Shown piece after piece: positions 8,211-25,551 of a stretch of 64,000 bases of DNA. The stretch spans positions 1-64,000 of IMG/VR virus record IMGVR_UViG_3300020464_000002. One strand, given 5' to 3'. Numbering within the stretch: position 1 is the first letter of the stretch; each line of letters begins with the position of its first letter. Both the position numbers and the translations under genes were made by a program. The DNA is from a virus. Below the pieces are notes generated by a model. That model was not told where the DNA came from, searched no databases, and saw only the letters and a list, made by a program, of their open reading frames with translations.

Positions 8211-8287
8211 CGGAACACCCCTAAACAGCACCCCTTAAAACTTGTCAGAATAACCGTATCTTATTAATTATTCATAGGTACGGCGAA
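8211..8287 (+). promoter_or_regulatory. late-promoter unit B
   Basis: Box CGGAACACCCCTAAAC 8211-8226. TGn plus CAGAAT 8246-8251. IR CCGTATCT/AGGTACGG 8254-8261/8276-8283 (one G-T pair). ATG 8288. Shares AACTTGTCA with units A and J. Confidence 0.6.
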
Positions 8288-11200
8288 ATGGCATACACCA
8301 AACAGAATAAAGCGCACAGCAATCACTATATCACCAAGCCTGACGGCTCAACCGCCAGTCGGTACAGCCGTTATGAGACTGGACGTATCACAGGCCGCTA
8401 TCGTGAAATACCAGCCGTTCTAGCGGACAGCACAGGCTTTGACAGCCTAGGCTTTGATAGCAGCGTTGGCAGCGTTGATGACCGCTGGCACGTTGTTAAC
8501 GTTTTTGACTCAGTAAATACTTATATTGATAGCATTGCCGTTGGCGGCGCGATGGACGGCAACCACGCCTTGCAAATCGCCAAGTCACAGCTAGACAGCT
8601 TGGGCGGCACTACTTGCCAGCTAATCACCAACAACGCCATGCAGTTTGACGGTATGGATCACGACCACGCATGGTCGATTGATGCCATTAATAAGCTGAT
8701 GGATAACCCCTCGCAAAACAAGAGCTACCTACCAGTAATCACCGCGCCTGAATTGGTCGTTGAGGCTGAGCGCGTCACGTTTGATAGCGTGCAGTGGGAT
8801 AGTAACAACAACCTAATCAGCCATGGCGGTAAAGACAGCCGCTTGTATCTTGATCTTACCCGCGCTGATACCCGAAACGAGCTTGTCACTGAGTTTGACT
8901 TGGCAGACGCGTTATTTGACATGGACGCACAGGAAGCGGGTTTTGATGCGTTGATGGACACAAAAAGTCGCTTACCTCTACTAAAAGATCGTTTATTTAA
9001 AGCGCTTAGCCAAGCAGGTGATGAAAGTCTATCTGTAACCAATGTAACGCAAACCAAAGAATTTAAGCGCCAAGGTGTGATTAATATCGCGTTTGTCTTT
9101 GATTTGTCAGACGGCCAAAAGCTGTCTATTTGGTTCCACAAGCCGCTAGAGTCCTCATCCAAACTACTACCAAGCGACTACATGGTGTCGTGGAAGTGGA
9201 TGTTGAATAAGCGCGATGTAACCGCCGCATTATCACCAAAACACGGCGATAACGTGCAGTTGCCAGCGCTGGCACGCCGTATCATGCGTGTGGCCGCTAA
9301 GAACTCTAAACGCTTTAAAGCCGCGCAAGCACGCAAGGCCAAGGTTGAGCAAGAGTTATTGGATGCAGAACAAGCAATCGAAGATAAAAAAGCCACGATC
9401 AGTCAATTAGACGCTGATATTGCTGATATTAACGCTAAAATTGATGCTGCTATGAAAGCGCCCGACTCAGACACAGTTAATGAGTCAGGCTTGCAAGCTG
9501 ACGAGCCAGCGGACGCGCCAGTAAGTACGACAGCGGCGACCGCCATCCCCGTAAGAGAAGCGCTTGAATACGTCAAAGCGAATATCTTTGAAGGCAAAGA
9601 TGATCAAGTCTTAATGTATGTCACCGATAGAAGTACCGGTGAGATCAAAGAAACTAAGCTAGTGAAGGCGTCGAGCAAATCAGCGCAAACGCGATGGTCA
9701 AACAATTTTGTCAATGATGATACGACTGGCTCAGTCTATAACCAGTCAATCCCTAAAACCAATAGCAACGCCGCCACCTTACTTGAAGACCTAGGGTACA
9801 AGATTAATTATGCCGATCCTGAAGGTTTCATTGATGATCAATTCAAAGTTGGTGACGCTTACCGCTTTATTGATCCTAACGACGCTAATGACACGGGCAG
9901 TGTCTTAGAGTTTAAGAGCTGGGAGGGTATCAACAGAGGTAACGACGAGCCGATACTATCATTTTCATCGTTTAGCGGCGCAAGTGGCAAGAGCTTTAAG
10001 CTTAGCGAGATGCAAAAACTTGTTGCTGACGGTGCGGCGGTACTGGTAACAGACTCAGAAGCGCAAGAAGCCAAGGATTTTGAAACCGAGCAGCCGGTAT
10101 CGGTGTATGTGAACAGTAAAGGCCGTGAATTGGTAACAGTGACGTACAGTCATGGTCAATACAATCTTAAAGGCAGTGGCTTTATGAATGGCGCTGACGA
10201 TGAAGCGGGCGTGTTAAAGATTTTGCGATCTATAAGAAAAGACAATAAATCCATGAAGTTGAAAGAGGGTAAAGAATTTTTCCCCGCGGGCGATGACGGT
10301 AAAGAATATCCGCCGCTTGAGTATGACGCCGAAAGCAAAACAGTTACCGCTTACATGAATAGTAAGAAAAAAGATAGCTGGACGGCCATACCTAAAGACG
10401 ATGGCGGCTTTACCGTGTACGCCGATAACGCCCAAACTCGCGCCTACAGAACCAGCGCACCGAAAATGTTTGATAACAGCGAAGATCTCATTGCCACTTA
10501 CCCCGCGTTTAGAGGTATCGACGCATTATTGGCCAAGCATAGCACTAGCAGCGATGACGTAGACTACGCGGAGATCGATGAAAGCGAGTACCCTGAATTA
10601 TTCCTAGATCGCAACAGCGATAAGCTAAATATTTTAGGTATCGGCGATGACAATATTCATGTAGGCAACCAAAACCACGGCGAGGACAGCTATAGCGATC
10701 TATACCATATCGACACCGGTATCTTTAAAGATATGACACTAAACTTTACGGATGCCGTGTGTAAGGTAGTCGATGCTTCCATCGATATAGGTGCTGATGC
10801 GGTTGTCGGTGACTATACAGCAACAGCTTATCAAGATTCAATGTTCGATGACCTTAACAGCAAATCCAACCCCACTTACGGTATCACCGTGCAGATCTCA
10901 AAAGATGGTGCTTACTTGCGCGCCGAAGTCGATGCTTATGGTGAAGCTAAGATCTTAAAAGGCATGAGTGGCCAAGACGTTGTTGCAACCGTAAAACACG
11001 TATTTACCGATAATACCGGCGAATACAAAACAGCGATTGAAAACGCATTAGACGCACAGGCGGATCAAGATATGGACGATAAAAAAGCAGATGACGATAT
11101 GAGTACAACAGACACGCATGATGTACCTAACACAGCTGAGACAGCGCCAGCAGCCAATATTAGCAACTCAGGCATTCCCGACATAACCAATGCAGATAAA

Positions 11201-12472
11201 AGCAATGCCTTGGAATATGGAGAAAAGCTACTTGATTTTGCAAGGGCTAGCTGGGTTCCGTCTAAATCCTATGATGATATTGATGAGTGGACTAGCGAAG
11301 AACAGACGGCGGCGTACAGAAAAGAGAAAGAGTTAGTAGAAGCAGAGTTTAAAGAAGTTATCCGTCTTTTTGGTGTTCTAAAGCAGTACCGAGCCTATAA
11401 AAAGGATCAACAAGAGATTCAAGAAATGGCAAATCTAGCAAACAGAGCTTACCTAAGCGGCTGGCGTGGCAATCCGAGTAAAGGAAGTGAGATGAATCGG
11501 TTTTTCTCAGCTGTTGACAGAAGAAAACAAATGGAAATTTACAACGAAACAAAGGAGTGGAATGCTGTTAGTGAAGATCATGTATTCCCACCAGTCGAAA
11601 AGATAGGCGATGACGAGTACAGAGCTTATCGAGATAGCGATAAAAAAGATCATTGGACAGCCAAACACGTTAGAAGTGGAGATTGGGAGGTTGTTATTGA
11701 TACTGAGCGATCAAGAAATATAAAAGGCGTTAGTACATTAAGACTTTTTAACAGCATTGATGACATTATCAATGAATACCCAGCATTCAAGGGCGTTAAA
11801 GAAATTATTGCAGGCAATGATAAAACTAAAAAAGATGACACGCTGGATGATCCCGATGCGTTATTTGCTGCATTTTTTAATGAGTTTTACGATGAGGTTA
11901 TGAATAGTCAGCGTCCAAAAATACAAGGTCTGCGATTGTCAGCCAATGCGGTAGATGGAACCAATATATCTTTTGAGTCTGGAAATGGTAAGTCTTACAA
12001 AATCTTAGGATCAGAGTACAACCCTTCAGGTAAAAACGTAAACCTTAATTTGATTGAAGTTAAAGCCAACGGCGCAGGTTACACCTCTCAAAACTCTATG
12101 ATATCGATTGTTGCTAGTACCAAAGTGACAAAAAATTCAGACTGGATGGAGTCATTGCGATCTAAGAAAGAGTGGCTCATATCAGAAGTTTTTGACGTAC
12201 TAGACATAGATTACCAAGAAAAAAACAAAGCCGACACAGTAGCGGAGCCAGCCACCAGCGCCGCCGCTAAGCGTATTAACGAGATCGAGCAGCAAATGAG
12301 CGCCGCTGATTTTGACCCGATGACCGTTGATACTGACGAGCTAATCGACTTGGTAGATCAGGTCGAGGGCGATGTGGAGCTTAGCGCCAAGCTAGACTAT
12401 CTCAGCACGACCCTGCAGCAAAAAATAGTTGCCGTCAGCATGAAAGCCCTTACCGATATGGCTGGCGCGTAA
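8288..12472 (+). CDS. giant (1394 aa) putative virion cargo / polyvalent-type protein
   Basis: Uninterrupted 4.2-kb ORF with a coiled-coil segment, acidic low-complexity stretches and an internally duplicated module (KKDxWTA...YPAF(R/K)G). No enzymatic motif recognised. Confidence 0.55.
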   Translation: MAYTKQNKAHSNHYITKPDGSTASRYSRYETGRITGRYREIPAVLADSTGFDSLGFDSSVGSVDDRWHVVNVFDSVNTYIDSIAVGGAMDGNHALQIAKSQLDSLGGTTCQLITNNAMQFDGMDHDHAWSIDAINKLMDNPSQNKSYLPVITAPELVVEAERVTFDSVQWDSNNNLISHGGKDSRLYLDLTRADTRNELVTEFDLADALFDMDAQEAGFDALMDTKSRLPLLKDRLFKALSQAGDESLSVTNVTQTKEFKRQGVINIAFVFDLSDGQKLSIWFHKPLESSSKLLPSDYMVSWKWMLNKRDVTAALSPKHGDNVQLPALARRIMRVAAKNSKRFKAAQARKAKVEQELLDAEQAIEDKKATISQLDADIADINAKIDAAMKAPDSDTVNESGLQADEPADAPVSTTAATAIPVREALEYVKANIFEGKDDQVLMYVTDRSTGEIKETKLVKASSKSAQTRWSNNFVNDDTTGSVYNQSIPKTNSNAATLLEDLGYKINYADPEGFIDDQFKVGDAYRFIDPNDANDTGSVLEFKSWEGINRGNDEPILSFSSFSGASGKSFKLSEMQKLVADGAAVLVTDSEAQEAKDFETEQPVSVYVNSKGRELVTVTYSHGQYNLKGSGFMNGADDEAGVLKILRSIRKDNKSMKLKEGKEFFPAGDDGKEYPPLEYDAESKTVTAYMNSKKKDSWTAIPKDDGGFTVYADNAQTRAYRTSAPKMFDNSEDLIATYPAFRGIDALLAKHSTSSDDVDYAEIDESEYPELFLDRNSDKLNILGIGDDNIHVGNQNHGEDSYSDLYHIDTGIFKDMTLNFTDAVCKVVDASIDIGADAVVGDYTATAYQDSMFDDLNSKSNPTYGITVQISKDGAYLRAEVDAYGEAKILKGMSGQDVVATVKHVFTDNTGEYKTAIENALDAQADQDMDDKKADDDMSTTDTHDVPNTAETAPAANISNSGIPDITNADKSNALEYGEKLLDFARASWVPSKSYDDIDEWTSEEQTAAYRKEKELVEAEFKEVIRLFGVLKQYRAYKKDQQEIQEMANLANRAYLSGWRGNPSKGSEMNRFFSAVDRRKQMEIYNETKEWNAVSEDHVFPPVEKIGDDEYRAYRDSDKKDHWTAKHVRSGDWEVVIDTERSRNIKGVSTLRLFNSIDDIINEYPAFKGVKEIIAGNDKTKKDDTLDDPDALFAAFFNEFYDEVMNSQRPKIQGLRLSANAVDGTNISFESGNGKSYKILGSEYNPSGKNVNLNLIEVKANGAGYTSQNSMISIVASTKVTKNSDWMESLRSKKEWLISEVFDVLDIDYQEKNKADTVAEPATSAAAKRINEIEQQMSAADFDPMTVDTDELIDLVDQVEGDVELSAKLDYLSTTLQQKIVAVSMKALTDMAGA

Positions 12473-13335
12473 TGCTGGACGCACCAGCCAACAACAAAGG
12501 CCAAAAGCCTAGCGGTAAAACGTTAGGCAGCGTTTGGCGCGAAAAAGGCTTAAACAAAAACCTTGTTGTAAAAATTAGACCAGTTGTAGAGGGTAATTTT
12601 GAGGGCGGCCAAGGTCAGCAGACTTATAGTGTTGATACCAGCCAGCCTACGGTTGAATCTATTTTTGAGGAAGCTGATTTTTCCATCGAGAGCCAGTACA
12701 GCACGCCTTTTGAGTCATCAAACCCCGAAGGGCGCTTACCTAACCTGATGGGTATGATCCAGTCAGGCCAAATCAACGCCGCTTACTACAGCTTATTTGC
12801 GGTAACAAATGATCCAACTGGTGTGGGTGCTGGGATTGCCGAACTAGGCGCGGCCGCCGCTGAACTGACAGGCGTTGCTGATGCGTTGAGCGAGTCCGAG
12901 GGTAAATTACAAGGCTTGATGGGGCGCTCAAACTTTACCAAGTTAAACAGCCGTCAGATCTTCACGTCTGCTAGCTCGATCCGTATTACTGGCAGCTTGT
13001 TTTTTGAAGCGTGGGCTAACGCAAAAAGTGAGGTAGAAGACGCTTTACAACAATTACAAATATGGGCATCGGCCGCCGAACTATCCAAGCAATCACTATT
13101 GGTTAGCGGGATAAAAGACGGTTTTTCCGAGGCCATGTTTCCTTCAATCATTCCCCCATTGGTACAACTTCAATACGGCGGCAAAACCTATAGCCCCATG
13201 GTGGTTGAAAGTGTATCAGCACCAATCACAGCACCTATGACCAAAGACGGCGACCGCATTGCCGTTAGGGTGCAGGTTGTCTTCTTATCATTGACCGCAT
13301 GGGATGCACAAAACATTATCAACACGAGGCGCTAA
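12472..13335 (+). CDS. hypothetical protein
   Basis: 287-aa ORF. Start overlaps the stop of the giant ORF (TAATG). Confidence 0.5.
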   Translation: MLDAPANNKGQKPSGKTLGSVWREKGLNKNLVVKIRPVVEGNFEGGQGQQTYSVDTSQPTVESIFEEADFSIESQYSTPFESSNPEGRLPNLMGMIQSGQINAAYYSLFAVTNDPTGVGAGIAELGAAAAELTGVADALSESEGKLQGLMGRSNFTKLNSRQIFTSASSIRITGSLFFEAWANAKSEVEDALQQLQIWASAAELSKQSLLVSGIKDGFSEAMFPSIIPPLVQLQYGGKTYSPMVVESVSAPITAPMTKDGDRIAVRVQVVFLSLTAWDAQNIINTRR

Positions 13336-13337
13336 TC

Positions 13338-14075
13338 ATGACCACAACACTAACCATTCAATTATTAAATGAAAGCCTGAGCTTGCCTGATCTCAGTATT
13401 GGCGATGCCATAGACATTGCACAAATACCGTCAGGCTTTAATGAAAAACGCCTAAGCGCCTTAATTGGCCATTTAAGCGGCGATGCAGCGTTGGCAGGTC
13501 GATTAACCGCGCAAGAGCGCTATTACATACTGCTAAACCATCAAGCAACCACGAGCCACAAGTACAACGCTGATGACGCTGGCGCGAACGATGAATATAT
13601 GATCGAAACTATCCAATCAGACGTACCAAATGAGGTGCAAGTGGGTGAATTGATTATCAACCATTTACGCGGCGCTCACGTTGTTGTTTTAGAGGGGATT
13701 TGTGAAAACGTGGCCGAATGGCTTATGGGGCAAATGGCGTGCCAGCTTAGCGGAAATCTAGCCAGCATTATTGGTGGCGATGACGTTGTATGGGAGCCAG
13801 TACCAGCAACCATGACCGACAGCGAGATCAACGCCGTTATTCAAGAGCGTTTTCGCTTCATTAGCGGCCTATCTGCCACCAGCGCTTTTAACGATCTTGT
13901 CGATGCCTATAGTAACGGCGCACACCAGCTGACGCATTTTGTCAAATTAGGAAGCGACAATAAAGGCTTAACCGTTATTAAGTCAGGAGGTGACGGCAAT
14001 ATGGAGCCGTCACGATTTCACACCCTTGACCATTTATCAGGGGCAGCCGCAAGACTTGCAACATGCCTTGCTTGA
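13338..14075 (+). CDS. hypothetical protein
   Basis: In-frame ATG 13338 lies 2 nt after the upstream stop. The track ORF begins at 13299. Confidence 0.5.
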   Translation: MTTTLTIQLLNESLSLPDLSIGDAIDIAQIPSGFNEKRLSALIGHLSGDAALAGRLTAQERYYILLNHQATTSHKYNADDAGANDEYMIETIQSDVPNEVQVGELIINHLRGAHVVVLEGICENVAEWLMGQMACQLSGNLASIIGGDDVVWEPVPATMTDSEINAVIQERFRFISGLSATSAFNDLVDAYSNGAHQLTHFVKLGSDNKGLTVIKSGGDGNMEPSRFHTLDHLSGAAARLATCLA

Positions 14076-14088
14076 AGACGCATTTACG

Positions 14089-14274
14089 ATGGTGGAACAC
14101 GGCAAAATGAGCTTGCCCGAAGCCCTTAAAATAGGATTGTCTTTTATAAAGCTGTATCGAGACTCACCAAGTTTTGAGCGCGTATCAAAAACCATTGAAA
14201 ACGAGCGTATTTACAAGTCAGGCGTTATAGATCGTTTAAACGCAATCATACAGGTAAGCCAAGCGCGGCGTTAA
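14089..14274 (+). CDS. small hypothetical protein
   Basis: In-frame ATG 14089 lies just after the upstream stop at 14075. The track ORF 13990-14274 would overlap by 86 nt. Confidence 0.35.
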   Translation: MVEHGKMSLPEALKIGLSFIKLYRDSPSFERVSKTIENERIYKSGVIDRLNAIIQVSQARR

Positions 14275-14289
14275 TGGAGAAAGCACAGA

Positions 14290-14811
14290 ATGAATCACCG
14301 CATAGAAACAGCAAGGCTTGCGCTGGCAAATATAAGCGGCGGCAGCGCAACTTATGTGGCAACCGCATCAAGCGCCGCTGGGCTAAGCCAACAACTCAAC
14401 CAAACCCATATGTTCTTATATTTGGATCTACCGATTTGGATATTTTTTACGGCGGCATTTTTACTGGCAATCGTTGGATCGTTGGGATCTTTATATATTG
14501 ATGTGATGAGGGAATCTAACCTTACGCTCGCTCAAAAATTTATCAACTTGTCATTAGGGTTTATAACAGGACTGCTAGGCGCGTTCGTGGTCTTGCCAGC
14601 GTTCACCGCCGCGCCGCCAATGCCAGTCATCCTACTAACGTCATTAGTCACATCGTTTGCAGGTACGGTTGTTATTAGAAACGTGGGTGATCTTATTCGT
14701 AATGAGGAATTGTGGGACGCGGTAAAAACGCTGGTGATAGAACGCCTAAAAATGCTGTCTATCGACCGTGTTAAAGAACTGCTAACACTATTTTTCGGAG
14801 GTCGCAAATGA
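14290..14811 (+). CDS. putative holin (multi-TM)
   Basis: 173-aa ORF with several hydrophobic helices, two genes upstream of the endolysin. Confidence 0.45.
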   Translation: MNHRIETARLALANISGGSATYVATASSAAGLSQQLNQTHMFLYLDLPIWIFFTAAFLLAIVGSLGSLYIDVMRESNLTLAQKFINLSLGFITGLLGAFVVLPAFTAAPPMPVILLTSLVTSFAGTVVIRNVGDLIRNEELWDAVKTLVIERLKMLSIDRVKELLTLFFGGRK

Positions 14812-15209
14812 CCCTTATTAGCTATCTATTCAACTGGCACATAATCAATGGCGCAATGCCGTTTTTTGGGATATTAGCCAGCGCTTATATTCTTTTTAGC
14901 AGGAAGACTTGCACCGCCAACAAAGCCATATCTACAGCGCTATCATTGAGCATTATTCTATGGCTAATGCTGATATGGGCTGACTGGGGGAGCGCTGTTT
15001 TTACGCCGTCTTATCAAAGCATGTGGGCGCGAATACTGTTATTGATCGTGTCCACACTCATCATGTTTGAGTTACGCCGAAATACGATAAACAACCAAAA
15101 ATTAAACCGCGCCAATGCCAGTATTATAAAGGAAAACCAACGCCTCAATACGATCAACCAGCTACTACACCAAAAGATTAACCAACAACAAGGATTAAAC
15201 AATGAGTAA
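14808..15209 (+). CDS. lysis-cassette membrane protein (second holin/antiholin-like)
   Basis: 133-aa ORF with three hydrophobic segments then a polar Q/N-rich tail. Overlaps both neighbours. Confidence 0.4.
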   Translation: MTLISYLFNWHIINGAMPFFGILASAYILFSRKTCTANKAISTALSLSIILWLMLIWADWGSAVFTPSYQSMWARILLLIVSTLIMFELRRNTINNQKLNRANASIIKENQRLNTINQLLHQKINQQQGLNNE

Positions 15210-15783
15210 GTATTTAACCAAACCTCAAATCGTGGCCGCCGCCAATGATCTTGACGTGGAATATGCGGCGCTAAAATCCGTGCTTGAAGTGGAGTGCCGT
15301 AGTAGCGGTTTTTTCAGCACAGGCGAACCCGCGATCTTGTTTGAGCGCCACGTTTATTGGCGGCGTTTAGGTGATATCTACTGGTACACCAAGCGCTTGC
15401 AGATCATGGCCAAACACCCACGCGTCTGTAATAAGTTTAGCGGCGGCTATGGCAAGTTTAGCGAACAGCACGACAAGCTAGCGATTGCAGCCAGTTACAA
15501 CCGTGACGTGGCGTTAGAGTCTGCTAGCTGGGGTATCGGTCAGGTCATGGGCTATCACTGGGAGAAACTGGGCTATCCATCGCTACAGGCGTTTATCAAT
15601 GATATGTATGAAAGCGAAGCCAAGCAGCTAGAAGCCGTGGTTCGTTATATCAAACACTTCAATCTTGATGGGGCTTTACGCCGTAAAGACTGGGCGGCGT
15701 TCGCTTATGGTTATAATGGCAAGGATTACGCCAAAAACAACTATGACGAGAAGCTAAAACAGGCTTACCGCAAGTACGCATAG
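15202..15783 (+). CDS. endolysin, N-acetylmuramidase family (PF11860-like)
   Basis: Motifs ILFERHVYWR, SASWGIGQVMG and FAYGYNGKDYAKNNYDEKL match my memory of the phage muramidase family. Sits after holin-like genes. Confidence 0.65.
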   Translation: MSKYLTKPQIVAAANDLDVEYAALKSVLEVECRSSGFFSTGEPAILFERHVYWRRLGDIYWYTKRLQIMAKHPRVCNKFSGGYGKFSEQHDKLAIAASYNRDVALESASWGIGQVMGYHWEKLGYPSLQAFINDMYESEAKQLEAVVRYIKHFNLDGALRRKDWAAFAYGYNGKDYAKNNYDEKLKQAYRKYA

Positions 15784-15792
15784 GGGCTAACC

Positions 15793-18279
15793 GTGGACAT
15801 TAAAGACAATCTTAGCAAGATCAAGGAGTTGCAGAAAGCCACCGCCGAAGTACAGGCGGCGGCCAATGCTGTGAGTCGTATCAAAGCCAGCCAGCGCCTA
15901 ATTGAGCTTTTAAAGAGTATGGGCGTTTATGATCAAAACCAACATGACATTATAGGCGAAGAAGATGAAGCGGACGACGAATACAGCGACAACACTAATG
16001 ATGAAAATTACCGTTATGCTGATACTGGTTATATCGCTGGGAGTCATAAAGAAAAGGCTGCTAAACGCATTAAAGAGCTAGCCAAAGATGGCCATACCGT
16101 CAAAGATACCGATATCGAATGGGATGAGATCGAAGCGGACGCCTTGTTTGCTGAGGACGTAATCAAAAAGGCTAATATCTTAGGTGATATCGACTATCAA
16201 GCCATGAAAGACGCGGGCGGCGATGCTGGCACGGCGTTTATCATTCAAAAAGTATTTGCTTCTATTGCGCCAAAGCCGCATTGGGATATTCTCGAATTTT
16301 TTGAAAAAAGCAATACAGGTAAACGCATGATACGGCCGGTTAGTCACGGCGATCGTGAGCGTATCTATAAAGACATTGAAAGTAATGTCGCTGAGCGGCA
16401 AAAGCTGGCACGTAAAGCCTATGTTACTGGGATCAATACCCTAAAAGATCGCATTATCGGTATCACTGATATCAAGTCATTGGTGGCCGAGCTAAAAGAG
16501 ATTGCTGAAGAAATGGGCGGCACTAAAGTCAGTGCTGAGGACGCCAAACGTTATAAAGAATTAGATCAAAAACTAGCAGACGCTTTATCTTCCATGAAAG
16601 AGCGATCCGCTAAGTTTGAAGCCGAGTACAAAGCCGCTGAATCTAAAGCGGCGGACGAAATGGATATGCCAAAGAGCACTAAGCGGCGCGGCACGGCCAT
16701 TCCCGATTATTATGACGGCAAGTTTAAGCCATTGGTAACAAAAAGCGCCTATTACCACCGCCGCCAGTCTATGAAAAGGTGGCTTGCTGACAAATACCCC
16801 GATATCGGCTTCTCAGGGTTAGAAAATAGAAACTTCCCCGCCGTAACAACCGTTAAAAGTATTATGGCCTATAAGAATCTATTAGATGAATTTGATCTTA
16901 TGACGTTGCAAGCTGGATTAAGCGGCCTTCGAGATCCAAACGCTAACCTTGCATGGGTGTCACTTGGCGAACGCTTTTGGAATATCATCGAGTTTACGTC
17001 AGGATCTTTTGTTAAACACGCCAACATGGCGCTAAACAAGCGTTATGACGACTGGGCTTTAACCATCAATGAGGGCGGCGCTGGCAAAGGCGGCGCTAAA
17101 AAAGGCAAGACCAAAACCACGTTTGAATTGGTGGTTGCTGACAAGATCGAGAGAAAGGGCGGGCGTGAGGTCAACGTAAGATCGACTGAAGAGTTAAAAG
17201 ATATGTTCGGCTTCCGTGATATCCAGTCCGGTAACTGGGTGCTCAAAGACAAGGCTGTCGCTAAATTTCACGTTGAAAATGCGGCGGCGGCCATGATGGA
17301 TCTATCCGACGTGGTAGGGATTGATGCCAAGTCGCTAGCGTTTGGCGGCCGTTTGGCGCTGGCACTGGGCGCGCGGGGTAAAAAAGGCGCAATGGCTCAT
17401 TATGAACCGGTTGCGCGCGTGATCAACTTGAGCAAGATGAAGGGCGGCGGTGCACTTGGCCATGAGTGGTTTCACGCTATCGACAACATATTGGCCGAGG
17501 TGATGGACGTTGACGGCGGCACTAGCGCTGGCTTGTTTTTAAGTAAGGATTCATCCATTTTAGGCGATAGCCCAATAAATGCCGCGTTCAATAAGCTACG
17601 ATCAGCGATGCTAGAGGGTGATATTCGAGCACCTGAATCGTTTGAGATCACAGAGTCTCTTGTTAGAGCCGCTAAGCTAAACCTACCTGACGGCGATTAT
17701 TTAGGCAAGTTACAAAGAGTCATTAAGGACAACGATGCCACGCAAGCGGTGATCGAGGTTGATAGAATATTGACGCGTAGTAATGGCGGCAAGCGCAGCA
17801 AAAATCACAAAACATGGCGTAGAATAGCCGCTGCCTATCACAACCAAGACAAGATAGGCGAAACAATCACGCTAAACACTGGTGAACCGTCATCTAGTTT
17901 TTATGCTGAGTCAAAACGACTGGACGAGGGTAGATCTAAGCCGTACTGGTCAACCACGCTCGAAATGGCAGCGCGTGCGTTCCAAGCCTTTTTAGAAGAC
18001 AGCTTAAAGGCGCAGGATCGCCAAAACGACTATCTCAGTTACGGTGCTAACAATGCGCTATATAAAAACCATAACGCTTATCCCGATGGGGCGGAGCGTG
18101 AGAATATCAACGCCGTCTTCACTGAATTGTTTAAAGTAATCAAAGACGAACGTATTTTTGAAAACGCCATGGAAGATGAAGCCATGATGGATGCCATTTT
18201 TGGGGCAAAAAGTATCTTTTTTGACGAAGAACAGGCAGCCATTAACACGTTGTTTGGTGACAACGAGTATCACTGGTAA
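15793..18279 (+). CDS. 828-aa zincin-like (HExxH) polyvalent-type virion protein
   Basis: GTG start after AGGGG. HEWFH metallopeptidase-type motif (GGALGHEWFHAIDN). Coiled-coil and K/E-rich regions. Ends at terminator 18322-18346. Confidence 0.5.
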   Translation: MDIKDNLSKIKELQKATAEVQAAANAVSRIKASQRLIELLKSMGVYDQNQHDIIGEEDEADDEYSDNTNDENYRYADTGYIAGSHKEKAAKRIKELAKDGHTVKDTDIEWDEIEADALFAEDVIKKANILGDIDYQAMKDAGGDAGTAFIIQKVFASIAPKPHWDILEFFEKSNTGKRMIRPVSHGDRERIYKDIESNVAERQKLARKAYVTGINTLKDRIIGITDIKSLVAELKEIAEEMGGTKVSAEDAKRYKELDQKLADALSSMKERSAKFEAEYKAAESKAADEMDMPKSTKRRGTAIPDYYDGKFKPLVTKSAYYHRRQSMKRWLADKYPDIGFSGLENRNFPAVTTVKSIMAYKNLLDEFDLMTLQAGLSGLRDPNANLAWVSLGERFWNIIEFTSGSFVKHANMALNKRYDDWALTINEGGAGKGGAKKGKTKTTFELVVADKIERKGGREVNVRSTEELKDMFGFRDIQSGNWVLKDKAVAKFHVENAAAAMMDLSDVVGIDAKSLAFGGRLALALGARGKKGAMAHYEPVARVINLSKMKGGGALGHEWFHAIDNILAEVMDVDGGTSAGLFLSKDSSILGDSPINAAFNKLRSAMLEGDIRAPESFEITESLVRAAKLNLPDGDYLGKLQRVIKDNDATQAVIEVDRILTRSNGGKRSKNHKTWRRIAAAYHNQDKIGETITLNTGEPSSSFYAESKRLDEGRSKPYWSTTLEMAARAFQAFLEDSLKAQDRQNDYLSYGANNALYKNHNAYPDGAERENINAVFTELFKVIKDERIFENAMEDEAMMDAIFGAKSIFFDEEQAAINTLFGDNEYHW

Positions 18280-18321
18280 GTTTAAAAAACGGCAGCCTAG
18301 CCAGCGTTTAGCGCTAACCAA

Positions 18322-18346
18322 CCCCGCCAAAAATGGCGGGGTTTTT
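18322..18346 (+). terminator. intrinsic terminator
   Basis: CCCCGCC aaaaat GGCGGGG followed by TTTTT. Confidence 0.75.
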
Positions 18347-18349
18347 CAT

Positions 18350-18426
18350 TGGAACAGTGTAAAAGTTGCTAGCCGTTTACTTGTCATAATTGGTTATTGC
18401 TTTTTATAACCAATCGGACAGCATTT
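18350..18426 (+). promoter_or_regulatory. late-promoter unit J
   Basis: Box TGGAACAGTGTAAAAG 18350-18365. TGn plus CATAAT 18385-18390. IR ATTGGTTAT/ATAACCAAT 18389-18397/18406-18414. ATG 18427. Confidence 0.6.
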
Positions 18427-21400
18427 ATGAAAACAGATCAAACGCCGTCAGGCACTAAAGCCAAGTTTAAAAACATTGCCGACCTACAAGCCGCGCTTGC
18501 CAAGTTGCAAGGCGCAACCAACACAAAAGACCGACTAGCCGCCACACAAGGCGTTGTCGATGTTTTGAAAAGAATTGGATCGCTGAGATCGATAACCATT
18601 CAAGAGGCCAAAAACGGCAAACTTGATGACGATCATGACACGCCAGCACCAGCCGCCGAAAAAACGCCAACCAGTGATATTGTTGATCGTACTGGCATGG
18701 TTGAGCTGGCGGGAACCAGTAAGCGCCAAGCAGCCAATAATAAAGCGGTCGAACTTTTGGCCAAAATCAAGGCCGAGGGCTTAACCCGCGATGATCTATC
18801 ATCTGAGCAGATCGAAACGCTGGCGGCCTATACTGGCAGCGGCGGCGGCCTGATCTCAAACAAGGGTAAACGCGGTAGCGCTTACGAGTATTACACCCCC
18901 AAAGCCGTTGCCTCAAAAATGTGGGAATTGGCCTCAGAAATGGGCTTTACTGGCGGCAAGGTACTAGATCCGAGCGCTGGTACTGGCGTTTTTGCGGCCA
19001 CCAGCCCTGAAAGTGCCGTTATTGACAGTATCGAGCTTGACGAAGTATCAGGCGGCATTGCCTCGATCTTAAACGATGGGGATCGCAGCAATACGGTTGT
19101 ATCGTCTTTTGAGAAGCGCAACGAGCTGATCGCAGATGATAGTCTCGATATGGTAATGACAAACGTGCCTTTTGGCGACAATAAAACACGCGGCGAGCAC
19201 AAAATGGACGATGACGCGTACCAAAATGAGAGCTTAGAGACTTACTTTATCTTGCGTTCGCTTGAAAAGATTAAGCACGGCGGCCTTGCCGTATTTATCA
19301 CGCCAACGTCTGTGATCTCAGGCAAAAAAGGCGACAAGGAACGCTTGCGCAAATTGACCAGCCTAAAAGCTGAGCTGCTGGGCGCGTACCGCTTACCAAA
19401 CAAAGTATTTGAACAGACAGGCGCGGACGTAATGACGGATATCATTGTTTATCGCAAGCATAGCCGTGAAGCGACCGATCAAATCAACGCGCTGTATGAA
19501 GCTGGCGATATGGACACGTTGGCCAAAACCAAGGTCATGTGGGATGAATATATCAGCGGCGCTTATTTTAAAAACCCAATCCATAAAGCTAAATTCATGT
19601 TGGGTAACGAAGTGCAAGTACCAAGCCGTTTTAACCCCGAAGAAATGGTAACGGCGCTAAGCAACCCCAAACCAACGCCTGAGATCATGAAAGACATTAA
19701 AAAGTTTGGCGGTAGTCGTATTGATTGGGAAGCACTGGGCGCAGCTGAGGCCGCTTATATCGAATACAACAACGGTGACGTGATATTCCAAAACGGCAAG
19801 CAATTAGAGTACCAAGACGGCCGCTGGCACGTTATGGCCGCCGAGCCGACCGACAGTGACCGTGAAATGCAGAAGGCACTTGCTAACATGGGCAGTGCGA
19901 TCGAAATGGTTGTAGCTGGCATGACGTTTGACATGATGGATCGTGTGAACAGCTACACCTTAACGACTGGCCAAGCCGATTTAATCCCGCGTGCTGCTAG
20001 ATCTTTGTTTAATCGAACCCTCGTTGTCGCCCCTAAAATGCGTGCCGCCGCGTGGAATTGCGTTATCGCAGCACAAGCGATAAAAGACGTGATCGCCGAG
20101 CAAGATTATGGCTATGACTTCATGACCAACGAGCCGGCCTTGACCAGCTTTATGAAAACCGCCTTTTTGGACGGCAAAAATACCAAGCTGACCAAAGAAC
20201 CAAAGCAAGACTTTAATTTTGTCAAACTCTACTACGATAATGGCAAGTATAACGCGGTATGGCGCGGCCAAATTGATACCGAGGTCGAAGTTAAGGACGA
20301 GGCGCGATCTTATACAAGCCTTATTGCACGTATGCAGTATGACAATAAGAGCCTATATTTAAGCCGTGAGCAGTTGGCCAAAGTTAACCCCGATACTGAC
20401 CCATTAACCGATAATGAGTGGTTTATCAATCATGACGGCAGCCAAGTTATCGCCGCTAGTGACTTTTTGACTGGCAGCTTATCGAATTGTTTGGCCAAGA
20501 TTGACGAGCAGATCAAACAAGCGACCGACAGCAAGATCATTGCCAAGCTAGAACAGCAAAAACTATTTGCGACTGAAAACGTAACACGTATCAACTTGCA
20601 AAGCGTGGACTTTGACTTGCGCAGCCCACTAATCAGCGCCGAGGACAAAGTACGCTTTTTAAAGCAGTCAGTGCACAAAGACGCGTATATCTCGTTTGAT
20701 GAGTACGGCAAGGGCACGCCTGATATTGACGTAAAAGGCGGCAATCTAAGGGATGAAGAAAAGCTGTATAACCGTATCGGTGACTGGTTGGCTAAGGGAA
20801 CCGTGACCACTGGCGGCGTGACACTTAGCAGAATGACCGAGCGTGAAGCGCTGGACTGGATGAGCGAGCAAATTAACGTTGCTAACGTCAAATTTAGCAG
20901 CTGGGTTAAAGCCAACGACAAGCTAATGGCCAGCCTTGAGCGCACCATAAACCATAACGACAACCTATTTTTTAGCCAAAACAGTGATGAATCACCAGTC
21001 GAAATCGCTGGCATGAACCCTCAACTCAAGTTGCATGGCTATCAAAACGCGTTTGTGCGCAGCCAAGGCCGACATTTTGGCGGGATTAACGGCATGGGCG
21101 TTGGACTTGGTAAGACGTTTTCGTCATTGTCCAGCACGCAACATGCGCATAATATTGGCGCTAAGAAAAAAACTATTTTTGTTGTGCCAAATAGCGTGCT
21201 GTCAAACTGGCGTAAAGAGGTCGATTTTGCCTATACCAGCACTGATGACTGTTTGTTTGTTGGCTTGCGTGAAAAGGGCGACCAATTCCGCGTCTATTCC
21301 AACAAGTATGATGAAGATCTACTAAAAGCGGTCGATAGCAAGTACCGTAAGATTTTTATGACTTATGAAGCGTTTAAGCGTATTAGATTGAAAGATGAGA

Positions 21401-24400
21401 CTATAGCGGACTATGCAAGGTACGTTAAACAAAACGATTCAGCCTACGCTAATAAAGACTTGCAAAAAGCCAATGAAAAAGCCAAGGGCATGATTGCTGA
21501 GTTAATCGATCGCCTATCGATGGACACCAACGCGCCATTTTTAGAAGACATGCGCGTTGATAGCGTGGTGATCGATGAAGCCCATGCGTTCAAAAACTCA
21601 ATCAGTGCGCCCAATACAGACAACCGTATTAAGTACCTATCACAGCCCCAAGAGTCAGCACGCGGTGAGGACGCACAGGCTAAGTTATTTTACATACGCG
21701 GCCTGACCCCAGCCAATGACGGCGTGCAGCTGCTAACAGCAACACCTATCACCAACAGCCCCTTGGAGATCTACTCTATGCTATCGCTGGCTGGCGGTCG
21801 TGACACAGTAAATAAAATGTGTGGCGGTATTGTGGGTGCAGACGACTTTTTGGCCGTTATGTGCCAAATTGAAGAAGAAGTCGTACCAACGATTGACGGC
21901 AAGACGCGCTCACAAAACGTTTTTACTGGCATTAGAAACGCGCAGATCTTGAAAAAAGCGGTACGAGCCAATGCCGTGATCAAGGACGCGCAAGACGTTG
22001 GCATGTCGGTTGTTATTCCCGAACGTGAAGAATTGGCAACCTCGGTCAATTTAGGCAAAGAGATTGACGGCCAGTTAAGAGAATTACAAGATGCGTATGT
22101 GGTAGCGCGTCAGATCGAGGCTGAAAAGCTGGACAATGAATTAAAAGACCCAACCCATCCACAAAGCCCATACAATCCAAAAAGCCCTTATAGCATTGTT
22201 GCTGGCAAGTACGGTGAAACCAACGATCTAATAGCACACCCATTCAACCTGATCCGTAAGATGGACGTAATGATTGCCGATGCTGAGTTTAGCGAGGGTG
22301 TGACGTTTTATGACTTTGACGAAAACCAACAGGCGATCGCTGAAAAGGTAGTGAACCAATTTAGCAACGGTAGAAAAAAACACACTGATGAACGTTCGCG
22401 CCCTAGCGCATACACTGCTGAGGAAGACGCTAAACCGATCTATAAGAAAGAAGACGGCGAACAGGTGCTAAAGGGTTATAAAATCGCTTGCAAGGCTAGA
22501 ATTGTTATCCACAAAGGCCGTTCACGTATTATGATTGACACAATCGAGAGCAAGTTTCAATCCAGTTTTGAGGCTATGGCCGATAAAGCCAAGCTAAATC
22601 TTGATGTTGCCGTGTCTGCTAAAGTTGCGGCCTTGCTTGAAAACTTTAAAAACGAACAGGCCAACCCGCGTGGGATCAGTAACGACAATACAACCAGCAA
22701 GATCGTTAAGCAGATCATCTTCTGTGATCACTTATTTTTGCATAACAAGATCAAGCGTGTTTTAATCAAACGCGCTGGCGTGCCAGCTAACAAGATCGTC
22801 ATCATTACAGGACAGACAAATAACGATCCTGACAAAATGATCGATATTCAAGACGGTTTTAACGCGTTTGGTGCAGATAATCAGTATCAAGTGGTTATTG
22901 CTAACAAGAAAGCTGAGGTCGGTATCAACTTGCAACGTGGTACGCAAGCAATCCATCATTTAACGACTGGCTGGACACCCGACAGCTTAGAGCAGCGCAA
23001 CGGACGCGGCGCACGCCAAGGCAACAAGACAGAGAGGGTTAAGATTTTTCATTATGACGCGGACGGCACGTTTGATGAGTTTAAACGCACCATGATCGAC
23101 AAAAAGGATGAGTGGATCACCAGCGTGTTATCAGATGAAGACACGAACACGATTGAGGTATCAGGCAGTATCACCCGCGCTGAGCAAGACGCGCTTATTC
23201 GTTTGGGTGGTGATCGTGAGGCCATGCGTGCGTATCAAGCCGAGCGTGACGCACAAGAGGCGCAAGCGCGTAAGGAAGCCGCTATCAAGCGTCATAAAGT
23301 CAATATGCAAGTCGTTGATGAGCAAACCAAGATTGTTAAAAAGCTCAAGATAGATGATTTTTATGAGAACGCTGTAAAAGAAGTCGTTAACCTCATTAAA
23401 GATAATAACGTTGTCTATAAGAAAATACACGCTAACAAAAGCAGCGCCAGCACCAAAGCAAACAGCACCAAGCGTTACAATGCCACCAAGTCGGTTATCC
23501 TCGATAAGATCGAAGAAATTTTTGATAACGTGAAATCACAGGCGGTAAATAGTAATTGGGTAGCAATAGAGAGTATCAGTCCTTATCGCGCCACTATTAG
23601 CGCTGAGGATGCCTATGATATCGTGCAAAACAACTTAGGTCGCGGCGAAAATTTTGCTAATGATAATAGTGGATCATGGGCGGTGCATTTTGCTCGTAAG
23701 ATTTTAACCCATGGCGCTAATTTTGATAGATCCAAAACTATTATCAACAGCGATGGTATTTATCAAGCCACGTATGATGAGATCAACACAACGGCTAGAA
23801 ACCTCATTAAGCAAGCGCTACTAGCAGCAAATGAGTTGGCCGATCGTGCTGGCTTGGCTGGCATGACGATACCTGACGATGCAGGTAATTTAATTGCTGA
23901 CGGTAAAGCGGTTATTCATGATGGTTTTTTCTTTATGGCTGGCTCGATTGCAATTAGCGATCAGTGGTCGCCAGTTAGAAAAGAGGACTTTTTATTTGCA
24001 ATTAACGATAAATTGAGAGGCCACGCACTAACAAGCCGCGTAGATACAAGGGGCGTAACCGTTTATCAAAGCCCCGAAAGCTCACCTCAAGGCATAAAAG
24101 CAAAAGCAGTTATTCATCCAAACACGCCTGAATACCTAGAATACGTTAAGGCTATGGCTAAGATTGAAGATGAGCACTACGGCGCAGGGCAGTTAAGCGA
24201 AGCCGTTTACAGTAATATCATTCCTCAAGTTGCCGAATATAGAGATAATAGTATTCAACCGTTGTGGCATTTAAGCCCTAATTTAGCTGGCCGTCAGGTT
24301 GGCTTATCAAATTGCGACTTCTTGGTGATGTTGCCTTATGAGGTTTTGGCCGCTGGCACGCCGTTTGCGAATAAAATGCTAAGCGACTATAGCGCCGCTG

Positions 24401-25113
24401 GCATTAGTATTGATCTTGATAGCAAAACTTATCAAGCGACTAACGACAAAGTGCAAATTAACGCCGATCAATACGATACGCAAATGATCCACGATCTTTA
24501 TTACAGTTATGTTGGTTTAATGATTAAGCATAGCGGCGTTAAGTTAACCGCTGACGATAAAGCGCTAATGGGGCAACCTCAGATTATAGCTGAGCTATTA
24601 AAGGAACCAGCTGATCAGTTGATAACCGCGCTTAGAGCCGCCGCCGACAGCATTACCGAGCGCCAAAGCAATCGAGTGTTAGAAGATATGGTCGTTAAAT
24701 TGTTTGATGATCTTATTTATAGCGATGAATATATGAGCGATGAGCCAACAGCCGATATGAAGATTTATACGCTAGAATATGTTTATGACGAACACTTAAA
24801 CCGTCAAAATGTTTTAGATGCCGTGGACTTCTTACGGACTGAGAGCAGCAAAAACATTGCTGAGGCTAAAGTTAAGGCGATGGGCTTAGAGGCAAGCGCC
24901 GCTGGTATAAAAGACAGCGACACGGTTTACGTTAGCGGTGATACCCAAACGTACTATAAAACTATCAAGGCATACGGCAATAAAAACGGTGAGAAAGCAA
25001 GATATCAAGGCAATAAATACCAGTCGTGGGCGATGAGTTTTAGAGCCTACAAAGAAATGATAACCGCTAGACCTGAATTGGCTAATCTTTTACCTATGAG
25101 CAAAACACGATAA
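18427..25113 (+). CDS. DarB-like giant protein: N6-adenine methyltransferase plus SNF2-type helicase plus long uncharacterised C-terminus
   Basis: MTase motif I VLDPSAGTGVF (about 18967-18993) and motif IV TNVPFG (about 19162-19176). Helicase motifs GMGVGLGKT (about 21101), VIDEAHAFKN (about 21574), LLTATPITNSPLEIYSML and QRNGRGARQGN. ATG 18427 is preferred over the track start 18397, which lies inside the hairpin. Confidence 0.7.
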   Translation: MKTDQTPSGTKAKFKNIADLQAALAKLQGATNTKDRLAATQGVVDVLKRIGSLRSITIQEAKNGKLDDDHDTPAPAAEKTPTSDIVDRTGMVELAGTSKRQAANNKAVELLAKIKAEGLTRDDLSSEQIETLAAYTGSGGGLISNKGKRGSAYEYYTPKAVASKMWELASEMGFTGGKVLDPSAGTGVFAATSPESAVIDSIELDEVSGGIASILNDGDRSNTVVSSFEKRNELIADDSLDMVMTNVPFGDNKTRGEHKMDDDAYQNESLETYFILRSLEKIKHGGLAVFITPTSVISGKKGDKERLRKLTSLKAELLGAYRLPNKVFEQTGADVMTDIIVYRKHSREATDQINALYEAGDMDTLAKTKVMWDEYISGAYFKNPIHKAKFMLGNEVQVPSRFNPEEMVTALSNPKPTPEIMKDIKKFGGSRIDWEALGAAEAAYIEYNNGDVIFQNGKQLEYQDGRWHVMAAEPTDSDREMQKALANMGSAIEMVVAGMTFDMMDRVNSYTLTTGQADLIPRAARSLFNRTLVVAPKMRAAAWNCVIAAQAIKDVIAEQDYGYDFMTNEPALTSFMKTAFLDGKNTKLTKEPKQDFNFVKLYYDNGKYNAVWRGQIDTEVEVKDEARSYTSLIARMQYDNKSLYLSREQLAKVNPDTDPLTDNEWFINHDGSQVIAASDFLTGSLSNCLAKIDEQIKQATDSKIIAKLEQQKLFATENVTRINLQSVDFDLRSPLISAEDKVRFLKQSVHKDAYISFDEYGKGTPDIDVKGGNLRDEEKLYNRIGDWLAKGTVTTGGVTLSRMTEREALDWMSEQINVANVKFSSWVKANDKLMASLERTINHNDNLFFSQNSDESPVEIAGMNPQLKLHGYQNAFVRSQGRHFGGINGMGVGLGKTFSSLSSTQHAHNIGAKKKTIFVVPNSVLSNWRKEVDFAYTSTDDCLFVGLREKGDQFRVYSNKYDEDLLKAVDSKYRKIFMTYEAFKRIRLKDETIADYARYVKQNDSAYANKDLQKANEKAKGMIAELIDRLSMDTNAPFLEDMRVDSVVIDEAHAFKNSISAPNTDNRIKYLSQPQESARGEDAQAKLFYIRGLTPANDGVQLLTATPITNSPLEIYSMLSLAGGRDTVNKMCGGIVGADDFLAVMCQIEEEVVPTIDGKTRSQNVFTGIRNAQILKKAVRANAVIKDAQDVGMSVVIPEREELATSVNLGKEIDGQLRELQDAYVVARQIEAEKLDNELKDPTHPQSPYNPKSPYSIVAGKYGETNDLIAHPFNLIRKMDVMIADAEFSEGVTFYDFDENQQAIAEKVVNQFSNGRKKHTDERSRPSAYTAEEDAKPIYKKEDGEQVLKGYKIACKARIVIHKGRSRIMIDTIESKFQSSFEAMADKAKLNLDVAVSAKVAALLENFKNEQANPRGISNDNTTSKIVKQIIFCDHLFLHNKIKRVLIKRAGVPANKIVIITGQTNNDPDKMIDIQDGFNAFGADNQYQVVIANKKAEVGINLQRGTQAIHHLTTGWTPDSLEQRNGRGARQGNKTERVKIFHYDADGTFDEFKRTMIDKKDEWITSVLSDEDTNTIEVSGSITRAEQDALIRLGGDREAMRAYQAERDAQEAQARKEAAIKRHKVNMQVVDEQTKIVKKLKIDDFYENAVKEVVNLIKDNNVVYKKIHANKSSASTKANSTKRYNATKSVILDKIEEIFDNVKSQAVNSNWVAIESISPYRATISAEDAYDIVQNNLGRGENFANDNSGSWAVHFARKILTHGANFDRSKTIINSDGIYQATYDEINTTARNLIKQALLAANELADRAGLAGMTIPDDAGNLIADGKAVIHDGFFFMAGSIAISDQWSPVRKEDFLFAINDKLRGHALTSRVDTRGVTVYQSPESSPQGIKAKAVIHPNTPEYLEYVKAMAKIEDEHYGAGQLSEAVYSNIIPQVAEYRDNSIQPLWHLSPNLAGRQVGLSNCDFLVMLPYEVLAAGTPFANKMLSDYSAAGISIDLDSKTYQATNDKVQINADQYDTQMIHDLYYSYVGLMIKHSGVKLTADDKALMGQPQIIAELLKEPADQLITALRAAADSITERQSNRVLEDMVVKLFDDLIYSDEYMSDEPTADMKIYTLEYVYDEHLNRQNVLDAVDFLRTESSKNIAEAKVKAMGLEASAAGIKDSDTVYVSGDTQTYYKTIKAYGNKNGEKARYQGNKYQSWAMSFRAYKEMITARPELANLLPMSKTR

Positions 25114-25122
25114 GGAATATTT

Positions 25123-25551
25123 ATGAATTATTTATATGATCCTGATTTTCTATCGAGAAAAACAGCGGCCACCAAAAGATCACTAGCAGAAAACCAGCCA
25201 AATGCAGACTTCGTTGAGTTTGCCGCTGGCGTGATCTATGATCGCCTTAAAAAGAACATACAGCGCTATAGAGTGTATGGGATGTACTGGTGGGCATTAA
25301 AGGACGTTCTAGCGCGTCAGGGCTACGATATGGGCGCAGAAACCGATGATGATATGGCTGCCTTGTATAAGGGCGCTGACGATGCTGAAACATTAGTCGC
25401 AGCCGATCTGTTTTATCTTGATATGAGTAGTCAAAAGCCGGTTGATAATAATCGCTGGACGATCGACAACCGCCGCGATGATTATGTTTTGTATGATGCA
25501 GACATGGAAGAACGCAACAGAATTACCGACAGCTCATTTTTAGTAAAATAA
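25123..25551 (+). CDS. hypothetical protein
   Basis: 142-aa ORF with SD AAGGA, the last gene of the DarB-like operon. Confidence 0.5.
   Translation: MNYLYDPDFLSRKTAATKRSLAENQPNADFVEFAAGVIYDRLKKNIQRYRVYGMYWWALKDVLARQGYDMGAETDDDMAALYKGADDAETLVAADLFYLDMSSQKPVDNNRWTIDNRRDDYVLYDADMEERNRITDSSFLVK

Follow-up and report, generated by a model that had tools for sequence, protein, structure and literature searches.

A probable P1-type Dar system, rearranged and rebuilt from polyvalent-protein modules, in an integrating marine phage

The Dar proteins of phage P1 are carried in the phage head, enter the cell with the DNA and blunt host restriction enzymes. The P1 late promoter LPdar drives lydA, lydB, hdf, darA, ddrA and ddrB. 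Six Dar proteins are present in P1 virions, where DarA and Hdf line the inner capsid, and Ulx and DdrB aid the loading of DarB (PMC9024508, PMC12810830). The catalogue of polyvalent proteins drawn up by Iyer et al. 2017 (PMC5512222) lists DarA-N, LPD1, LPD3, DdrB-ParB, methylase with SWI2/SNF2 helicase, and metallopeptidase among its domains. Here we analyse a stretch of 64,000 nucleotides (the window; positions 1 to 64,000 of IMG/VR record IMGVR_UViG_3300020464_000002), which represents 64 kb of the ~65.5-kb contig of an uncultured temperate phage from marine (Tara Oceans) metagenomes. A locus with three giant open reading frames (ORFs), of 1394, 828 and 2228 aa, is probably a P1-type Dar system of a distant, integrating P1 relative, rearranged and rebuilt from polyvalent-protein modules. 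Its products would be made late in infection, packaged in the head and released along with the DNA to protect it against restriction, these functional steps being modelled on P1 and on the polyvalent proteins.

The Dar reading is preferred on grounds of homology and domain content, of the order of the genes and their shared promoter boxes, and of the recurrence of the set in related phages. All genes of the locus lie on the + strand, and identical calls were obtained on independent assemblies of the same phage. Operon 1 runs from the 1394-aa ORF through genes for proteins of 287, 245 (or 258), 61, 173 and 133 aa and a muramidase to the 828-aa ORF and a terminator, and operon 2 holds the 2228-aa ORF and a 142-aa ORF between a degenerate promoter box and a second terminator. 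An earlier note on this DNA, made from the letters alone, had described three giant ORFs, interleaved lysis genes, two boxes and a strong terminator, all of which are present; its figure of about 13.3 kb, or a fifth of the window, for the three giants agrees with their summed length of 13,359 nt (21%). Its proposal of a Dar-like multi-component set was likewise borne out by a DarB homologue, a Ulx homologue and a DarA_N giant that matches PDB 9ukm_I.

The 1394-aa giant carries DarA_N (PF18788) at residues 219-340 (E 1.2e-25; 90 bits against a Pfam cut-off of 27) and matches the structure of P1 DarA (PDB 9ukm, chain I) at E 2.8e-14 over DarA residues 128-265, that is, over most of the hexon-binding DarA_N domain and the start of the helical part beyond it. 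In P1 DarA, DarA_N spans residues 66-204 (domain names are taken from PMC12810830). Identity to P1 DarA is 28%, the alignable part being DarA residues 107-265 alone, and the NCBIfam model anti_RE_DarA (NF052326) matched at E 1.4e-16 with 60 bits, short of its cut-off of 350. A tblastn comparison of the protein with phages gave two weak matches, both in the DarA_N region. By these matches the 1394-aa protein is DarA-related. A second DarA_N protein, of 179 aa, is encoded by a gene that crosses the left edge of the window and was seen in full on the same phage at L010:9462-10001. DarA_N is its sole domain, with a marginal score (27.7 bits against the Pfam cut-off of 27), and is accompanied by a basic helical tail; a 134-aa stretch of the protein aligns with P1 Hdf at 27% identity (E 7e-5). 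Judged by this similarity it is Hdf-like and a fourth Dar component, which left the component list of the earlier note incomplete, the gene lying at the window's left edge outside the region that the note had covered.

Within the giant, a conserved N-terminal region (residues 1-400) is followed by shuffled cargo modules (420-1320) and a conserved tail of the last ~70 residues. Among 119 homologues the first ~400 residues are kept, with identities of up to 96%, and the last ~70 are widely kept; the middle is a mosaic in which modules are reordered, duplicated or replaced. LPD3 and DdrB-ParB are inserted in this middle region in many relatives, and neither is present in the window's giant. A word-indexed homologue search with residues 421-960 returned a single fragment, and an exhaustive HMMER search was used instead, in which residues 421-1394 matched 28 of 1.84 billion cluster representatives at E<=0.001. 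Eight more distant matches were tested: six were DarA_N proteins, one had no Pfam family and one was a polyketide synthase, which was taken as a chance match. An AF2 model of the cargo, of moderate confidence (pLDDT 64.6), shows small domains of alpha/beta and beta type arranged in strings. This ~970-aa C-terminal cargo is the sole truly undescribed part of the locus, and its modules are almost confined to DarA_N proteins. Its most conserved block, at 10600-10990 of the window (residues ~772-900), was found in 35 homologues with D, C, D, T, Y, Q, F, D, P, Y, G and R as invariant positions; it had no family or fold match and may represent a catalytic or binding domain that is yet to be characterised.

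It could be argued that the main role of the DarA_N giant and of the Hdf-like protein is structural, as inner-capsid cement or head-size determinants, with a C-terminal region that fills or organises the head and with no anti-defence role. In P1, DarA and Hdf are indeed located at 55 penton-hexon junctions and influence head morphogenesis (PMC12810830), and the cargo described above has no enzymatic signature or known fold, the N-terminal 400 aa being the conserved part. However, the C-terminal modules are swapped between near-identical N-termini, and LPD3 and DdrB-ParB are found there in relatives. Such module swapping is typical of conflict-driven effectors and not of structural spacers, and P1 DarA itself has both roles. 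A mainly structural function is, in our judgement, unlikely.

The 828-aa protein contains HEWFHAID at residues 557-564, of which H557, E558, H561 and D564 are invariant in 37 homologues. The NCBIfam model CLCA_X (NF041907) matched it at E 9.5e-36 with 123 bits, below the curated cut-off of 260; profile positions 14-136 correspond to residues 464-583, which include HEWFHAID, and positions 161-245 (of 250) to residues 695-783. CLCA_X zincins, described by Lenart et al. 2013 (PMC3650047), share a conserved HExxH-Asp site, are enriched among phages and plasmids and are found in long proteins without other known domains. The 828-aa protein shares with this family the HExxH followed by a conserved Asp and matches both halves of the profile; it differs from it, apart from the low score, in a family-specific helical N-terminal region of ~430 aa and in an insert of ~110 aa that splits the zincin into halves at 464-583 and 695-785. 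On motif and profile it is probably a CLCA_X-family zincin. Pfam LPD1 matched residues 710-785 (E 4.5e-22), and because this match coincides with CLCA_X positions 161-245, LPD1 appears to be the C-terminal half of the CLCA_X zincin (residues 690-785 of the protein; 17860-18147 of the window), a reading that gives a common domain of unknown function an enzymatic assignment. The earlier note had named no domain in the 1394- and 828-aa proteins apart from HExxH, and DarA_N and a probable CLCA_X zincin that includes LPD1 now fill that gap.

An AF2 model of the 828-aa protein reached a pLDDT of 81. A whole-chain Foldseek search of the Protein Data Bank (PDB) gave nothing below E 0.4, this being a weak test for a multidomain model, and the fold matches in BFVD were polyvalent or MuF-fused phage proteins. 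PDB sequence searches were without hits for the 828-aa, 2228-aa and 287-aa proteins. The 828-aa protein was also tried as an orthologue of P1 DdrB and rejected, with no BLASTP similarity and a probability of 0.1 when its family was compared with DdrB by hhalign; BLASTP against the zincin of Xanthomonas phage Rb1 gave no hit at E<0.01. Members of the zincin family are fused to DarA_N (P0069, P0076), LPD3, PBECR or InPase, or adjoin DarA_N proteins (L016). It is mainly because of these fusions and neighbours that we think the 828-aa zincin is itself head cargo.

The position of the zincin gene, directly 3' of the endolysin gene in the window and in all syntenic relatives, could instead point to a lysis or envelope-attack peptidase that acts with the endolysin, or to a virion enzyme that degrades host surface proteins, and the relatives that have been characterised, CLCA and M64, are proteases that are secreted (PMC3650047). 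Against this, the N-terminal sequence of the 828-aa protein, as read outside the transmembrane scan, has no evident hydrophobic signal or membrane segment, and the family is fused to DarA_N, LPD3, PBECR, InPase or MuF head-morphogenesis domains. A zincin is moreover found in a Dar context in both Rb1 and P1, and the Rb1 module has no lysis genes. We thus consider a role in lysis or surface attack very unlikely.

The 2228-aa protein consists of an N6-adenine methyltransferase, an SNF2/SF2 helicase and a C-terminus of ~600 aa without assignment. Its Pfam domains (Eco57I, SNF2-rel_dom and Helicase_C) are the same as those of P1 DarB and in the same order, and its size is comparable to that of P1 DarB (about 2,250 aa); a TTG at 18397 would extend it to 2238 aa. 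Identity to P1 DarB is 34% in the methylase and 27% in the helicase, over about 1,300 aa in all, and rises to 41% over 1602 aa with the DarB of Rb1. The motifs DPSAGTG, NVPFG, GLGKT and DEAH are common to all three proteins. On this evidence the 2228-aa protein is a DarB homologue. The 142-aa protein encoded after it, across a gap of 9 nt from the stop codon, matched PHROG 1629 ('Ulx-like anti-restriction') at E 1.7e-23, and its identity amounts to 34% with P1 Ulx and to 44% with a 141-aa protein of Rb1; by family and by the darB-then-ulx order, which is that of P1, it is Ulx-like.

That this pair is a prophage-end accessory for defence or exclusion by the lysogen, with a non-injected methylase-helicase like those of type ISP or DISARM, is highly improbable: the pair does lie next to the integrase and attP, where the prophage ends, the corresponding slot in Psychrobacter cibarius holds a NERD-UvrD helicase, the pair is absent in the Psychrobacter prophage L014 and weak DrmD, DpdE and type I methyltransferase matches were obtained (PADLOC, NCBIfam), but these matches are generic, being to the helicase or methylase core alone and far below the family cut-offs for DISARM, Dpd and type I restriction-modification (R-M) (DrmD 47 bits against 610), no nuclease domain was found, no defence-system partner genes lie near the DarB-like gene, the best specific matches are the DarB proteins of P1 and Rb1 with Ulx attached, a late-type box lies upstream of the operon and the Rb1 pair is embedded among virion genes.

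The coordinates of the features are collected in Table 1. The box GGAACACCCCTAAA has 11 matches at <=3 mismatches, against 3.6 expected, and none of 100 shuffles reached 11; it is non-random. Good copies occur exclusively on the + strand, in gaps ~75 nt upstream of late genes. The GGAACAC(CCCTAAA) box was found at 3191, 8212, 18351, 43099, 46184, 50743, 55281, 60335, 61584 and 62479, and the genes downstream encode tail tube, Pro-like, fibre, sheath, head and other late proteins as well as the two Dar operons. A sigma70-like -35 element, ACTTGTCA(N)AAT, lies at exactly +28 from the boxes at 3191, 8212 and 18351, the last of which is a degenerate copy (GGAACAGTGTAAAA) with spacing equal to that of the other two. 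We infer that the boxes act as promoters of both operons. The terminator hairpin of operon 1 has a folding energy of -19 kcal/mol (z -4.0) and that 3' of the 142-aa ORF, which was absent from the list in the earlier note, one of -19.9 kcal/mol (z -5.0).

Table 1. Positions in the window of the genes and control elements of the Dar-like locus.
Feature	Positions	Strand	Basis or remark
3' part of 179-aa Hdf-like gene	1..346	+	start ~195 nt before window
Promoter unit B	8212..8271	+	box GGAACACCCCTAAA 8212-8225, TTGTCA 8242-8247, 18 nt, AATTAT
DarA-related giant, 1394 aa	8288..12472	+	DarA_N and cargo modules
PmgG-like protein, 287 aa	12472..13335	+	PHROG 1114; ORF overlaps stop codon of giant
Conserved 245-aa protein (258 aa from 13299)	13338..14075	+	PHROG 6830, E 1.4e-34
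61-aa ORF (94 aa from upstream GTG)	14089..14274	+	ORF call
173-aa membrane-protein gene	14290..14811	+	three hydrophobic segments
133-aa membrane-protein gene	14808..15209	+	three hydrophobic segments; overlaps 173-aa gene
Endolysin (N-acetylmuramidase)	15202..15783	+	PF11860, PHROG endolysin
828-aa protein, probable CLCA_X-family zincin	15793..18279	+	HEWFH at residue 557
Intrinsic terminator closing operon 1	18320..18343	+	ten-pair GC-rich stem, then T-run
Promoter unit J	18351..18410	+	degenerate box GGAACAGTGTAAAA, TTGTCA at +30, ~18 nt, TATAAC
DarB-like protein, 2228 aa from ATG	18427..25113	+	methylase and helicase homology
Ulx-like protein, 142 aa	25123..25551	+	PHROG 1629
Intrinsic terminator closing DarB-Ulx operon	25670..25694 (about)	+	fold energy

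Several smaller features were noted around the boxes. The GGAAC of the late box resembles the -35 element of an ECF sigma factor or an activator site, and no homologue of P1 Lpa was seen in the tblastn comparison. At the boxes at 60335, 61584 and 62479, a perfect hairpin (GCCTATACTGAG...CTCAGTATAGGC) stands just upstream of the start codon. A GGAACAC at 14094 was tried as a third promoter, for the lysis genes, and was not counted because it lies inside the conserved 61-aa ORF (codons V-E-H), 196 nt from the next start codon; the box-like GGAACACGGCAAAA at 14094-14107, upstream of the holin-like genes, may be a chance occurrence or a weak internal lysis promoter.

The remaining genes of operon 1 bear on the nature of the block. 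The 287-aa protein matched PHROG 1114 at E 1.8e-53 and is PmgG-like, which makes it probably a component of the baseplate/tail-tube junction and not a Dar partner; PmgG of P1 belongs to the baseplate/tail-tube junction, and tails depend on it (PMC9024508, PMC12810830). Syntenic genes for the 245-aa protein occur in L008, L014 and L015, and at the position of the 61-aa ORF, genes of 61 and 72 aa were called in L008 and L015. The 173- and 133-aa proteins, each with three hydrophobic 19-mers and encoded directly upstream of the endolysin, are holin/antiholin-like and had no family match in Pfam or PHROG. The endolysin itself was assigned by PF11860 (E 4.5e-56) and by PHROG (E 6e-78). The P1 lysis proteins (LydA-E, Lyz) have no homologues in the window, the cassette being analogous by position alone. 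The 287-aa gene, the 245-aa gene and the lysis cassette keep their order in all syntenic relatives; the block is therefore not the cargo island that the earlier note had made of it, and is instead a late operon that mixes morphogenesis, lysis and Dar genes.

The backbone of the phage is distantly P1-like, as judged by homologues of BplA, Pro, PacB and gp25 and by a portal of the same PHROG type that adjoins the Dar genes. Because a megablast search of the whole region against 50,697 phage records returned nothing, we conclude that it has no close cultured relative. A tyrosine integrase is encoded, unlike in P1. Within the late-gene block, a 604-aa protein (55379-57193; PHROG 1014) is the candidate capsid protein, P1 gp23 having 568 aa.

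A scheme modelled on P1 and the polyvalent proteins can be set out as follows. Late in infection, the promoters used for virion genes would express the two operons, and during head assembly the inner surface of the capsid would be bound by the Hdf-like protein and, through its DarA_N region, by the 1394-aa giant. Docking of the DarA_N region would bring the ~970-aa C-terminal cargo into the head, and the Ulx-like protein would help to recruit the DarB-like methylase-helicase. The 828-aa CLCA_X zincin would also be packaged, and might cleave itself or the other giants into working pieces; metallopeptidase domains have been proposed as processors of polyvalent proteins (PMC5512222). When the phage infects, these proteins would exit the head together with the DNA and, ahead of any phage gene expression, shield that DNA in cis against restriction, chiefly of type I. 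We infer that they are packaged, processed and ejected and that they counter restriction.

Several observations weigh against a P1-type Dar system. The profile searches that the earlier note had called for found DarA_N in the 1394-aa protein and LPD1 in the 828-aa protein, but DarA_C failed to appear in the giant at E<=1. Identity to the P1 Dar proteins is low throughout. When P1 DdrA and DdrB were searched against all window ORFs of at least 40 aa by phmmer --max, the best E values were 0.43 and 3, respectively; no ddrB-ParB domain was found in the window proteins scanned against Pfam, and at the sensitivity used the 828-aa zincin showed no homology to the DdrB peptidase. None of the catalogued Pfam domains is matched by the cargo modules of the 1394-aa protein, which have no assignable activity, and a Foldseek search of the PDB with the cargo model gave nothing significant, the best match (E 0.013, probability 0.25), to Spt5-like small barrels, being left unused. 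Some close relatives lack DarB and Ulx or have other genes in their place. Finally, the candidate capsid protein shows marginal collinear similarity to P1 gp23 (pairwise E 0.05) and no PDB sequence hit, so that the docking geometry of P1 is not simply transferable. Even with these points taken together, we hold the P1-type Dar system to be the probable reading.

A bolder form of it deserves mention. The DarA_N region, together with Hdf, may be a general capsid-loading handle, and the ~970-aa cargo may comprise undescribed effector domains that are delivered into the host, exchanged as cassettes among near-identical phages and freed by the CLCA_X zincin conserved alongside them. We put this forward tentatively, as a possibility worth keeping in view. 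If true, the locus holds new anti-defence activities and a natural, programmable platform for protein delivery. With their conserved capsid-binding head and fast-changing orphan cargo, the DarA_N giants offer a defined place to seek new injected anti-defence activities.

With regard to integration, the 20 nt at 26180-26199 are identical to the tmRNA 3' end of Acinetobacter, Moraxella, Microbulbifer and Methylophaga, which supports an attP for ssrA and with it the suggestion of the earlier note that the phage integrates there; no tmRNA gene or any other RNA gene was found in the window (Rfam, ARAGORN). The attP-like region comprises 25696-25739 and 26180-26348; 10-bp-phased repeats, AACGAACAT/C and AACGCAAAT, flank 26180-26199 and are likely integrase arm sites. 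Between the terminator of the Ulx-like gene and the attP core lies an orphan 138-aa ORF (25742-26158) with no match in Pfam, NCBIfam or PADLOC, whose position suggests a moron.

Among described loci, the closest protein relatives are in Psychrobacter prophages, where they are common and the same order is found: DarA_N giant, 287-aa gene, 245-aa gene, lysis genes, LPD1 zincin and integrase. Their zincin is 55% identical to the one described here, and the N-terminus of their giant up to 96% identical. Most Psychrobacter giants carry LPD3 and DdrB-ParB, and these prophages integrate at tRNA-Arg(CCU), in contrast to the tmRNA-like attP of the window phage; several lack DarB and Ulx or have other genes in the slot. 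Two of them (L008 and L014), integrated at tRNA-Arg, keep the giant and the CLCA_X zincin in the absence of DarB and Ulx, and for this reason the stable unit is the DarA_N protein with the zincin; the DarB-Ulx pair, being absent or replaced in some close relatives, is accessory. A further contig (L015) has the window's layout and a stand-alone DdrB-ParB gene. In L008 (Psychrobacter cibarius CP131612, 1623913-1646426), an MmeI-like R-M enzyme is encoded just upstream of the DarA_N giant, the NERD-UvrD helicase mentioned above occupies the DarB-Ulx slot and the prophage abuts tRNA-Arg(CCU) next to recC. The Psychrobacter relatives are already named "defense against restriction DarA-related protein" and "LPD1 domain-containing protein" in databases, and the domain classes have been described (PMC5512222, PMC3650047); the claim of the earlier note to an undescribed system does not stand. 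Domains, system and names of close relatives are already known from databases and papers. What is new is the architecture, namely DarA_N joined to orphan cargo, a zincin of probable CLCA_X type where P1 has the DdrB peptidase, and a displaced hdf, all in an integrating phage, together with the reading of LPD1 as part of the zincin.

Measured against the polyvalent proteins, the locus shares large multidomain proteins, a late-gene context and mosaic shuffling between relatives. Of the giants, the DarB-like protein combines methylase and SWI2/SNF2 helicase, and the 828-aa protein zincin and LPD1, so that both carry at least two catalogued domains, while the 1394-aa protein has DarA_N and uncatalogued modules only. 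The polyvalent catalogue lists LPD1 as a separate domain, whereas here it resolves into half of the CLCA_X zincin.

In Xanthomonas phage Rb1 (PQ569993), a run of four contiguous genes codes for a DarA_N giant, then a zincin, then DarB and finally Ulx; the order matches that of the window, and no lysis or baseplate genes are interleaved. The Rb1 giant, of 1221 aa, is 32% identical to that of the window over the DarA region and has unrelated cargo, and the Rb1 zincin is DdrB-like (HELGH; 25% identical to P1 DdrB 769-964) and not CLCA_X.

In comparison with P1 itself, the window encodes homologues of Hdf, DarA (N-terminal part), DarB and Ulx, with darB followed by ulx in both. Common to both are also a late-type DarA operon that includes lysis genes and a zinc peptidase, and Dar genes near the portal gene. 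In contrast, DarA_N here sits in a 1394-aa protein that has the ~970-aa orphan cargo and no DarA_C, hdf lies far from darA among tail genes, the operon position equivalent to that of the DdrB peptidase is held by a different zincin, of the CLCA_X type, and the phage integrates at a tmRNA-like attP, whereas P1 has a plasmid lifestyle. The current understanding of Dar systems is not overturned by this locus. The locus shows that the P1 Dar system extends beyond the P1-like plasmid prophages of enterobacteria. A recognisable core of Hdf, DarA_N, a zincin, DarB and Ulx turns up again both in a Xanthomonas phage and in integrating myophages of marine and Moraxellaceae type, its components being fused, split or exchanged.

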